Shown piece by piece: positions 45,625-45,923 of a stretch of 64,000 nucleotides of DNA (its first letter is position 1; each line of letters opens with the position of its first letter). The notes below the pieces were generated by a model, which ran no database searches, had not been told where the DNA came from, and saw only the letters and a list, made by a program, of their open reading frames with translations. Made by a program: the position numbers and the translations under genes. Where the stretch lies: positions 52,404 to 116,403 of IMG/VR virus record IMGVR_UViG_3300032782_000001, one strand, 5' to 3'. The stretch is from a virus.

Positions 45625-45923
45625 TCCAGGATAGCCAAGCGGAAAGGCAGGTGGCTGTCGATAAGGCAGCGTCTTGGGGTGACCCAAGATGGAAAATCGG
45701 GTGAATTCAAGGAACCCTAAACCGGAAGGTATGGGAACCCTGAGCCAAGCCGGTCGAGGACAAAAGTAGACCGGAAGGTGCAGAGACTAGGAGGTGAGCA
45801 GTCCAGCGATAAACTCCACTAGCGCCCGACGTCCCTCGAGGACGATGAGATAGTCCACGCCTTGAGGAAACTCAAGGGCTTCGTGTAACCACCCTACCGC
45901 AGGTTCGAATCCTGCTCCTGGAG
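45625..45923 (+). tRNA. tRNA with about 225-nt intron in the anticodon loop (probably Thr, anticodon TGT or GGT)
   Basis: 5' exon tccagga-ta-gcc..ggc-a-ggtgg-ct; 3' exon ..taa-ccacc-ctac-gcaggttcgaatcctgc-tcctgga-g-CCA; acceptor and anticodon stems pair across the insertion. Confidence 0.55.

Follow-up and report, generated by a model that had tools for sequence, protein, structure and literature searches.

A group I intron of the tRNA-Asn 35/36 family in a probable phage tRNA array, next to a free-standing HNH endonuclease gene

The group I introns closest to the one described here interrupt tRNA-Asn genes between anticodon positions 35 and 36. This class was listed earlier as Asn.4Ug (Williams 2020, bioRxiv 10.1101/2020.01.27.920355), its known members are found in cellular genomes, and the member of the Saccharimonadia genome GCA_016700035.1 splices precisely at 35/36 in vitro, as determined by sequencing the product (Nakagawa 2026, mSystems, PMC13011429). 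In phages, all group I introns known in 2014 were located in protein genes, despite the many tRNA genes that phages carry (PMC3984707). We report here on a stretch of 64,000 nt from the IMG/VR virus record IMGVR_UViG_3300032782_000001 (positions 52,404 to 116,403 of the record, hereafter the window), in which positions 45625-45926 are one tRNA gene split by a group I intron. The locus very probably consists of a single tRNA-Asn(GUU) gene, which lies among the arrayed tRNA genes of what is probably a large phage and carries a 227-nt IA-like intron at 35/36, together with an HNH endonuclease gene that most likely forms one mobile unit with the intron. Judged by its sequence, the intron is a further member of the tRNA-Asn 35/36 family, at the known site; what is unusual is to find such a member in a probable phage tRNA array, with an HNH gene of the family outside the intron.

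When introns are allowed, ARAGORN calls a single tRNA gene over 45625-45926, with an insert of 227 nt; in default mode it skips this split gene. The 5′ half is composed of the acceptor strand TCCAGGA, then TA, a D arm (GCC/GGC), an A and the anticodon-stem strand GGTGG. The 3′ half starts with CCACC, followed by a 5-nt variable loop CTACC, a T arm (GCAGG/CCTGC with the loop TTCGAAT), the acceptor strand TCCTGGA, G73 and an encoded CCA. The two halves are complementary in all four stems, and the exons make a perfect cloverleaf, whose D stem is 3 bp long (GCCAAGCGGAAAGGC). An earlier note on this DNA had described these exon sequences as a tRNA gene interrupted in the anticodon loop, which is borne out by the single-tRNA call. 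It had the insert at about 225 nt, close to the exact size of 227 nt, and the gene at 45625-45923, of which the start is right and the end moves to 45926 once the CCA is counted. Coordinates of all elements are collected in Table 1.

Table 1. The split tRNA-Asn gene, the predicted helices of its intron, and the two genes downstream (positions in the window)
Feature	Position	Strand	Remarks
tRNA-Asn(GUU) 5′ exon, positions 1-35	45625..45658	+	ends ...GGUGG-CU-GU; last exon base U35
Group I intron, 227 nt, IA-like, no internal ORF	45659..45885	+	RF00028, covariation over 54 pairs, homology
P1	45654-59 / 45665-70	+	exon GCUGU and intron C pair with guide GGCAGC; loop GAUAA; Rfam alignment
P2, 7 bp, GUGA tetraloop	45672-78 / 45683-89	+	double changes in 7/7 pairs
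P3	45697-703 / 45823-29	+	100% of cells paired, compensatory changes in 5 pairs
P4	45707-12 / 45738-43	+	encloses P5; mismatch A45710·C45740
P5	45715-17 / 45733-35	+	extended to GGAA loop
P6	45744-46 / 45777-79	+	
P6a	45750-55 / 45769-74	+	100% paired, compensatory changes in 4 pairs
P7	45783, 45785-89 / 45851-56	+	GAGACUA with UAGUCC; A45784 bulged; invariant in 14/14 introns
P7.1	45790-93 / 45814-17	+	GGAG/CUCC, reduced inner hairpin; compensatory changes
P8, 5 bp	45830-34 / 45840-44	+	100% paired, compensatory changes in 4 pairs
P9.0	45857-59 (ACG) / 45882-84 (CGU)	+	encloses P9, abuts ωG 45885
P9, GAAA loop	45860-66 / 45871-77	+	
ωG	45885	+	directly 3′ of P9.0
tRNA-Asn 3′ exon	45886..45926	+	U36, A37, A38, CCACC, variable loop, T arm, acceptor strand, G73, encoded CCA
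Free-standing HNH endonuclease gene, 180 aa	45941..46483	+	HNH and Zn-Cys motifs, C-terminal helix-turn-helix (HTH)-like region
Second tRNA-Asn(GUU), uninterrupted	46486..46560	+	different sequence type (G1-C72); begins 3 nt after the HNH stop

The insert was compared with the group I covariance model of Rfam, a check that the earlier note had proposed, and a group I core was found: RF00028 matches 45647-45877 over the full model (1-253) with 76.6 bits, for a gathering score of 50 (E = 1e-17). No second group I match was detected in the window, whether the threshold was the gathering one or a relaxed one. The structure was derived from the Rfam alignment together with 13 related IMG/VR introns sharing the motif GGAAGGTGCAGAGACTAGG. 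Over these 14 introns, standard pairs occupy 93.2% of 748 cells, compared to 31-41% after a shift of the 3′ partners by 1-3 columns; double-sided changes occur in 30 of the 54 pairs, and none of 500 shuffles reached the observed values. P7, the guanosine-binding helix, forms a pseudoknot with P3, and a 33-nt stretch containing P7.1 separates it from the 3′ strand of P3. The P7.1 region adds 31 nt to what the Rfam model contains, while P7.2 is reduced relative to related introns, one of which, in the viral contig L024, is devoid of P7.2 entirely. No open reading frame (ORF) was found within the intron (45659-45885). The intron appears to be IA-like, an assignment judged from the covarying P7.1, a helix which we take to be the mark of subgroup IA, and from homology to members classified as IA, not from subgroup covariance models. 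P7.1 is also drawn for the Patescibacteria tRNA-Asn intron (PMC13011429, Methods).

Membership in the tRNA-Asn 35/36 family is seen at several levels. The guide GGCAGC lies at +7, as in most published members and in all 7 genomic members that were parsed, and the intron shares with the published Asn introns (Table S3 of PMC13011429) the J8/7-P7 block GAUGAGAUAGUCCAC, the P7.1 region and the ACG...CGU-G ending. Identity to bacterial tRNA-Asn 35/36 introns is 64-76%. It amounts to 67.7% in multiple alignment and 68.5% in pairwise alignment for GCA_016700315.1 (Saccharimonadia), and to 64.3% and 66.1% for the GCA_016700035.1 intron that was spliced in vitro; the corresponding values for the IC3 intron of Anabaena tRNA-Leu are 51.5% and 57.1%. 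The closest among the matches listed is a tRNA-Asn intron from a metagenome-assembled genome (MAG) of the PVC-group, 75.7% identical over 226 aligned positions. At least 8 further tRNA-Asn 35/36 introns were found, in Elusimicrobia, the PVC-group MAG, Saccharibacteria, Paceibacterota and Limnocylindria. A gapped pattern applied genome-wide gave mostly chance matches, real introns making up 8 of 120 loci among the matches listed (nhmmer). In further searches, the exact 5′-exon pattern had no match in IMG/VR, a blastn search of GenBank phages with 45560-45960 had none either, and the P3-P4 pattern found in IMG/VR only L020, L024 and L047, all already found.

Two combinations of U(-1) and ωG yield an anticodon loop of 7 nt: U45656 with G45883, for a UGU (Thr) anticodon, and U45658 with G45885, for GUU (Asn). 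In the Rfam alignment it is U45658, not U45656, that faces a G in P1, making the wobble U45658·G45666 at the 5′ splice site with five Watson-Crick pairs above, and the first base of the intron (+1) is paired with the first base of the guide. In published and genomic Asn 35/36 introns, these two bases covary. On the 3′ side, P9.0 covaries as AAG/CUU, AUG/CAU, AUU/AAU, AUC/GAU and GUG/CAU in 7 genomic and several published relatives, and always abuts ωG.

Intron-less homologs give the same boundaries. High-scoring segment pairs obtained by BLAST with the two exons (45622-45658 and 45886-45924) abut at 2613/2614 in the metagenome contig L147, and at 1594/1595 in L150, meaning that the extra block in the window is exactly 45659-45885. 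The product spliced at 35/36 aligns without gaps to intron-less tRNA-Asn genes, and its positions 8-65 are identical in L147. A metagenome scan with AGGTGGCTKKTAACCACCCTA, in which GT, TG, GG or TT were permitted at the critical positions, gave 10 matches: all 10 read CTGTTAA (GUU), no CTTGTAA homolog was among them, and several are intron-less tRNA-Asn genes, colinear with the split gene and at the equivalent place in syntenic arrays. The earlier note had put the insertion after U33 or within the anticodon; the P1 wobble, P9.0 and the intron-less homologs place it between anticodon positions 35 and 36, for a predicted product tRNA-Asn(GUU).

Most likely, the intron self-splices by the standard two-step pathway initiated by guanosine. 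The guide GGCAGC (45665-70) would pair with C32-U35 and G31 of the exon to form P1, and a free guanosine bound in P7 would attack after U45658. ωG 45885, placed by the 3-bp P9.0, would then enter the same guanosine site, and the 5′ exon would attack after G45885, so as to join ...CUGU to UAACC... in a loop CUGUUAA (GGCUGU joined to UAACCACC). The anticodon stem GGUGG/CCACC may stand in for a proper P10 and hold the exons together; the Anabaena intron has been shown to depend on the anticodon stem of its pre-tRNA (Zaug et al. 1993, as cited in PMC3984707). RNase P and 3′ trimming would finally release a 75-nt tRNA with its encoded CCA. Such a mechanism is textbook, and leaves the knowledge of how group I introns work unchanged. 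A role in splicing for the RtcB-type ligase encoded in the window (16789-17997, see below) was rejected, as group I splicing requires no ligase.

The HNH gene begins 15 nt after the split tRNA, outside the intron. Its product matches PHROG HNH families (E = 2.5e-29), the invariant HNH residues being C36, C39, H51, H52, C84, N86, C87 and H88. In a three-sequence comparison with GCA_000503835.1, GCA_001029735.1 and GCA_016699425.1, it is 48-49% identical over ∼90 residues to ORFs inside Patescibacteria tRNA-Asn 35/36 introns (E = 7e-31 to 7e-21). These intron-encoded proteins (PMC13011429, Tables S3 and S6) share with it the CxxC...HH...N...CxxC-H core, and are associated with the same tRNA and the same intron family. 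They differ in being encoded within the intron, whereas the window protein is free-standing and has an extra C-terminal HTH-like region, as do its homologs in L024 and in another contig, L149.

A profile of the HNH family detects more than 500 relatives in IMG/VR. Neighbourhoods were counted for the best 80 viral loci (L064-L143), or 58 after removal of duplicates. tRNA arrays hold 77 of the 80. Among the 58 non-redundant loci, 35 have tRNA-Asn as their closest tRNA upstream, downstream or both, though tRNA-Asn represents 9% of the tRNAs there; it is the nearest upstream of the HNH gene in 23 of 52 cases (p = 3e-11), and the nearest downstream in 15 of 50 (p = 2e-5). This linkage suggests that the family is an isotype-specific, free-standing homing endonuclease. 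Examples of an HNH gene beside tRNA-Asn(GUU) are found in L069, L078, L088, L096, L124 and L140. Another observation from these loci is a group of viral tRNAs of 85-91 nt with a GUU anticodon, U1-A72, G73 and a long, class II-like variable arm, which are often the nearest tRNA to the HNH gene (L066 2544-2632, L071 2567-2653, L080 2599-2685, L089 2676-2763, L099 2438-2526, L121 3251-3336). tRNA-Asn usually has a short variable loop.

We consider that the product of the HNH gene (45941-46483) most likely acts as the homing nuclease of a mobile unit that includes the intron. The nuclease would cut intron-less tRNA-Asn alleles of competing genomes, and repair after the cut would copy the nuclease gene and the linked intron. 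Two results argue against such a unit. The intron family of the window is present in none of the 80 viral HNH loci, so the nuclease is usually independent of it. In addition, the closest HNH relative found, in L149 (45% identity overall and, by eye, ∼72% over the first 100 residues, E = 1e-60), follows, after 27 nt, a tRNA-Asn gene that is of the split gene's type but has no intron. The nuclease therefore needs no intron, nor does self-immunity require one, and the idea of the intron as the source of HNH self-immunity is weakened accordingly.

It is quite possible, although we do not favour it, that HNH gene and intron are unrelated, the former encoding a generic free-standing homing endonuclease of phage tRNA clusters that moves tRNA cassettes in the way of T4 SegB, and the latter having arrived independently. 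Nucleases of tRNA clusters are indeed known: SegB of T4 and T6, a GIY-YIG enzyme, and HNH proteins of mycobacteriophages are likewise encoded among phage tRNA genes (PMC13096335, PMC6409571), and both the 77 relatives lying in tRNA arrays without a window-type intron and the L149 gene would be expected of such an enzyme. SegB, however, has no isotype preference (PMC13096335) and no intron, whereas the window's HNH family shows a strong association with tRNA-Asn. Moreover, Patescibacteria carry genes of this HNH family within tRNA-Asn 35/36 introns that belong to the intron family of the window, and more distant relatives are found after the intron-bearing tRNA-Lys (35/36) of L024 and near the intron-bearing tRNA-Leu (34/35) of L062/L063. 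Finally, intron and HNH gene are jointly absent from the three syntenic arrays (L147, L150 and L152); in L152, two tRNA-Asn genes stand 6 nt apart where the window carries the HNH gene.

Taken with the mobile-unit reading, HNH genes of this family are found in three states: alone (L149 and many viral loci), beside the intron (the window) and inside the intron (Patescibacteria). These configurations would fit the proposed route of mobile-intron formation. We tentatively suggest, as a possibility that for now falls short of being the likelier outcome, that the locus is an intermediate stage in that process, and that phage arrays serve as reservoir and vehicle of the bacterial tRNA-Asn introns. 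If this were true, phage arrays would supply the introns of Patescibacteria, Elusimicrobia, the PVC-group and Chloroflexota. The three states form a series on which the origin of mobile introns could be tested, as could intron traffic between phages and Patescibacteria, which have reduced genomes.

Would the intron still splice? Three features weigh against it. The pair A45710·C45740 in P4 is non-standard, G-C being found at this place in all 13 relatives, and could slow folding; P10 is only ∼1 bp; and an intact tRNA-Asn(GUU) is located 560 nt downstream, so that the phage need not depend on splicing. The intron could then be a decayed, non-splicing relic, and the split gene a pseudogene whose work is done by the intact tRNA-Asn (46486-46560). 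The mismatch in an otherwise invariant P4, the redundant tRNA-Asn and the reduced P7.2 all go in this direction, yet we find such decay unlikely. All other invariant core positions are kept, with P1, P3, P6a, P7, P8, P9.0 and ωG intact, and the exons retain a perfect cloverleaf, identical over positions 8-65 to the intron-less homolog. Besides, an A·C pair can mimic a wobble pair, and the L024 intron does without P7.2 altogether.

Much less probable still is that the gene encodes a tRNA-Thr, with a UGU or GGU anticodon and an intron after U33 (33/34) or after position 34. The earlier note had proposed this isotype (anticodon TGT or GGT), and ARAGORN with introns allowed does print tRNA-Thr(tgt) with an intron at 33; U45656 and G45883 are formally a permitted U(-1)/ωG pair, with a 7-nt loop. 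But U45656 lies outside the P1 wobble, being paired with A45668, and P9.0 falls to 1 bp if ωG is set at 45883. As for GGU, it was ruled out, for it would require a G at -1 and a U at ω. The acceptor end was surveyed in 668 distinct phage tRNAs: the U1-A72 pair with G73 of the split gene occurs in 27 of 53 tRNA-Asn, in 0 of 44 tRNA-Thr and in 7 other phage tRNAs, and G1-C72 is found in 42 of the 44 tRNA-Thr. In a global alignment against the same 668 tRNAs with the anticodon masked, there was a lean towards tRNA-Asn, with 11 of the top 30 and the best top-5 mean, but the highest single score was that of one tRNA-Arg. Near-full-length matches of the spliced sequence in GenBank phages have an annotated tRNA-Asn at their top (81.8%, E = 1e-9). 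Asn genes are still among the top matches when the query is given a Thr anticodon, and no tRNA-Thr was among the GenBank phage matches with either query. To this is added the lack of CTTGTAA among the 10 metagenome matches. The error is moreover of a kind already documented, ARAGORN reporting tRNA-Asn 35/36 introns as Thr(UGU) 33/34 by a shift of two bases (PMC13011429). We retain tRNA-Asn(GUU). For annotation, this means that intron-aware finders shift such introns by two bases and report tRNA-Thr(UGU) in place of tRNA-Asn(GUU), which distorts the tRNA repertoires of phages and bacteria alike.

Two unrelated tRNA fragments had been named in the earlier note as part of what would refute it. 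That such fragments happen to flank a group I-like sequence has only its a priori possibility in its favour and can be dismissed with near certainty, as individual intron-less genes align gap-free with the two halves together, and the halves are complementary in all four stems.

The split gene belongs to a large tRNA array: ARAGORN in default mode finds at least 44 tRNA genes in the window, all on the + strand, from 45088 onward. The order Lys(UUU)-Lys(CUU)-Gln(CUG)-Asn-[Asn]-Thr(CGU)-Glu-Phe-Pro(UGG)-His is common to the window, L147, L150 and L152. Over 45088-49167, gene order is kept between these unrelated contigs though only the tRNAs align, which suggests that the array is a widely shared module. 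Phage-type genes in the window comprise an RtcB-type tRNA ligase (16789-17997, PHROG 1075, E = 1e-141), two tail-fibre-like proteins and three PHROG families of unknown function. A nicotinate phosphoribosyltransferase-like (NAPRTase) gene lies at 42836-44182; together with RtcB, it would suit a phage capable of tRNA repair and of nicotinamide adenine dinucleotide (NAD+) synthesis. The RtcB, tail-fibre-like and PHROG matches point to a large phage. These matches are few and no capsid or terminase gene was found within the window, which counts against the assignment and leaves a large phage as the probable, not proven, source.

Several other features of the array were recorded. An EF-Tu-like gene occupies 49184-50486, with domains 1, 2 and the start of 3 in one frame (49184-50365) and the rest of domain 3 (…TTDVTG…) in another (50250-50486); the change of frame may reflect a frameshift, an error in sequencing or a pseudogene. 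Directly after it in the array comes an ORF for a GIY-YIG endonuclease (50434-51330, PF01541, with a weak SegE-like match), a candidate for a second free-standing homing endonuclease. Upstream of the split gene, the 231-nt spacer that follows tRNA-Gln(CUG) (45394-45624) has a folding energy of -101.7 kcal/mol (z = -5.6 versus shuffles), and a weak tRNA-Sec-like Rfam match of 19.6 bits. Its 3′ end, 1 nt short of the tRNA-Asn gene, resembles the T arm and acceptor minihelix of a tRNA and reads ...AUCCA. The idea that a second split tRNA, of class II, has this spacer as its intron was rejected, since the matching 5′ half, with a GTTGG stem strand and an acceptor strand, was looked for and not found. 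Spacers at the equivalent place in the syntenic arrays are shorter and unrelated, and share a TTGACA-like box.

Further tRNA-like sequences are present in the window. A tandem array at 47008-47419 (within 46778-47450) contains ∼2.4 copies of a 165-169-nt repeat with 78% matches, each with a tRNA-like T arm CCAGGTTCGACTCCTG; neither ARAGORN nor Rfam called a normal tRNA in 47008-47419. Nearby, at 46807-46931, ARAGORN with introns allowed proposes a tRNA-Ser(tga) interrupted by a 33-nt intron, a call that is doubtful, and Rfam calls a tRNA at 47452-47519 that ARAGORN missed. The other ARAGORN intron calls in the window were discarded as chimeras of neighbouring tRNAs, Rfam having detected no group I intron but the one described. 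Five tRNA or tRNA-Sec-like Rfam matches of 30-43 bits are not called by ARAGORN in default mode (48937-49008, 58807-58887, 59947-60027, 61586-61668 and 62426-62509), and may supply some of the isotypes that it did not call (Tyr, Trp, Leu/Ser isoacceptors).

Three more intron-bearing viral tRNAs were met in IMG/VR contigs. L024 carries a tRNA-Lys(UUU) with an intron at 35/36 (∼8240-8530), which ARAGORN miscalls as tRNA-SeC, with an HNH homolog directly after it (8575-9135). In L029, a tRNA-Thr(UGU) has an intron at 36/37, and in L062/L063 (5193-5473) a tRNA-Leu(UAA) has one at 34/35, with a two-domain HNH gene ∼230 nt downstream. The intron core GGAAGGTGCAGAGACTAGG with P7.1/P7.2 is also common in the viral contigs L001-L061, apparently inside protein-coding genes. 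For metagenomic phages, the window and these three loci contradict the view that phage group I introns are confined to protein genes. We found no later report of a group I intron in a phage tRNA gene in the literature, of which our coverage is incomplete.

As for homing, an intron without an endonuclease gene and an adjacent free-standing endonuclease are said to cooperate in collaborative homing, which Bonocora and Shub reportedly described in 2009 for T7-like phages, and Zeng, Bonocora and Shub, the same year, for cyanophage psbA. The window likewise has an ORF-less intron adjoining a free-standing homing-endonuclease gene in what is probably a phage genome. In collaborative homing the host genes are protein-coding, whereas here the host gene is a tRNA, and the likeness lies in the gene arrangement, along with the family links of intron and nuclease.

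The earlier note had likened the insert to the self-splicing group I introns of cyanobacterial and phage tRNAs. Group I it is, but the likeness is loose: the classical cyanobacterial tRNA introns are of subgroup IC3 and lack P7.1, and phage tRNA introns were not known as of 2014 (PMC3984707). The IC3 tRNA introns are, like that of the window, small group I introns of the anticodon loop, with a similar J6/7-P7 sequence (AAGGUGCAGAGACU) and exon alignment by the anticodon stem. They differ by the absence of P7.1 (in Anabaena, P7 runs straight into the 3′ strand of P3), and by their sites, which are 34/35 in cyanobacterial and plastid Leu(UAA), 33/34 in fMet and 36/37 in Azoarcus Ile and Agrobacterium Arg, versus 35/36 here; for the classical IC3 tRNA introns, of which Anabaena Leu was compared, identity to the window intron is 51-57%. 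The tRNA-Asn 35/36 family (Asn.4Ug) is the closer relative, having the same site, a guide (x)GCAGC, P9.0 followed directly by ωG, and P7.1. Within that family, the window copy is set apart by its probable phage tRNA array, the 3-bp D stem of its host tRNA, the nuclease gene lying outside the intron and the A·C mismatch in P4.

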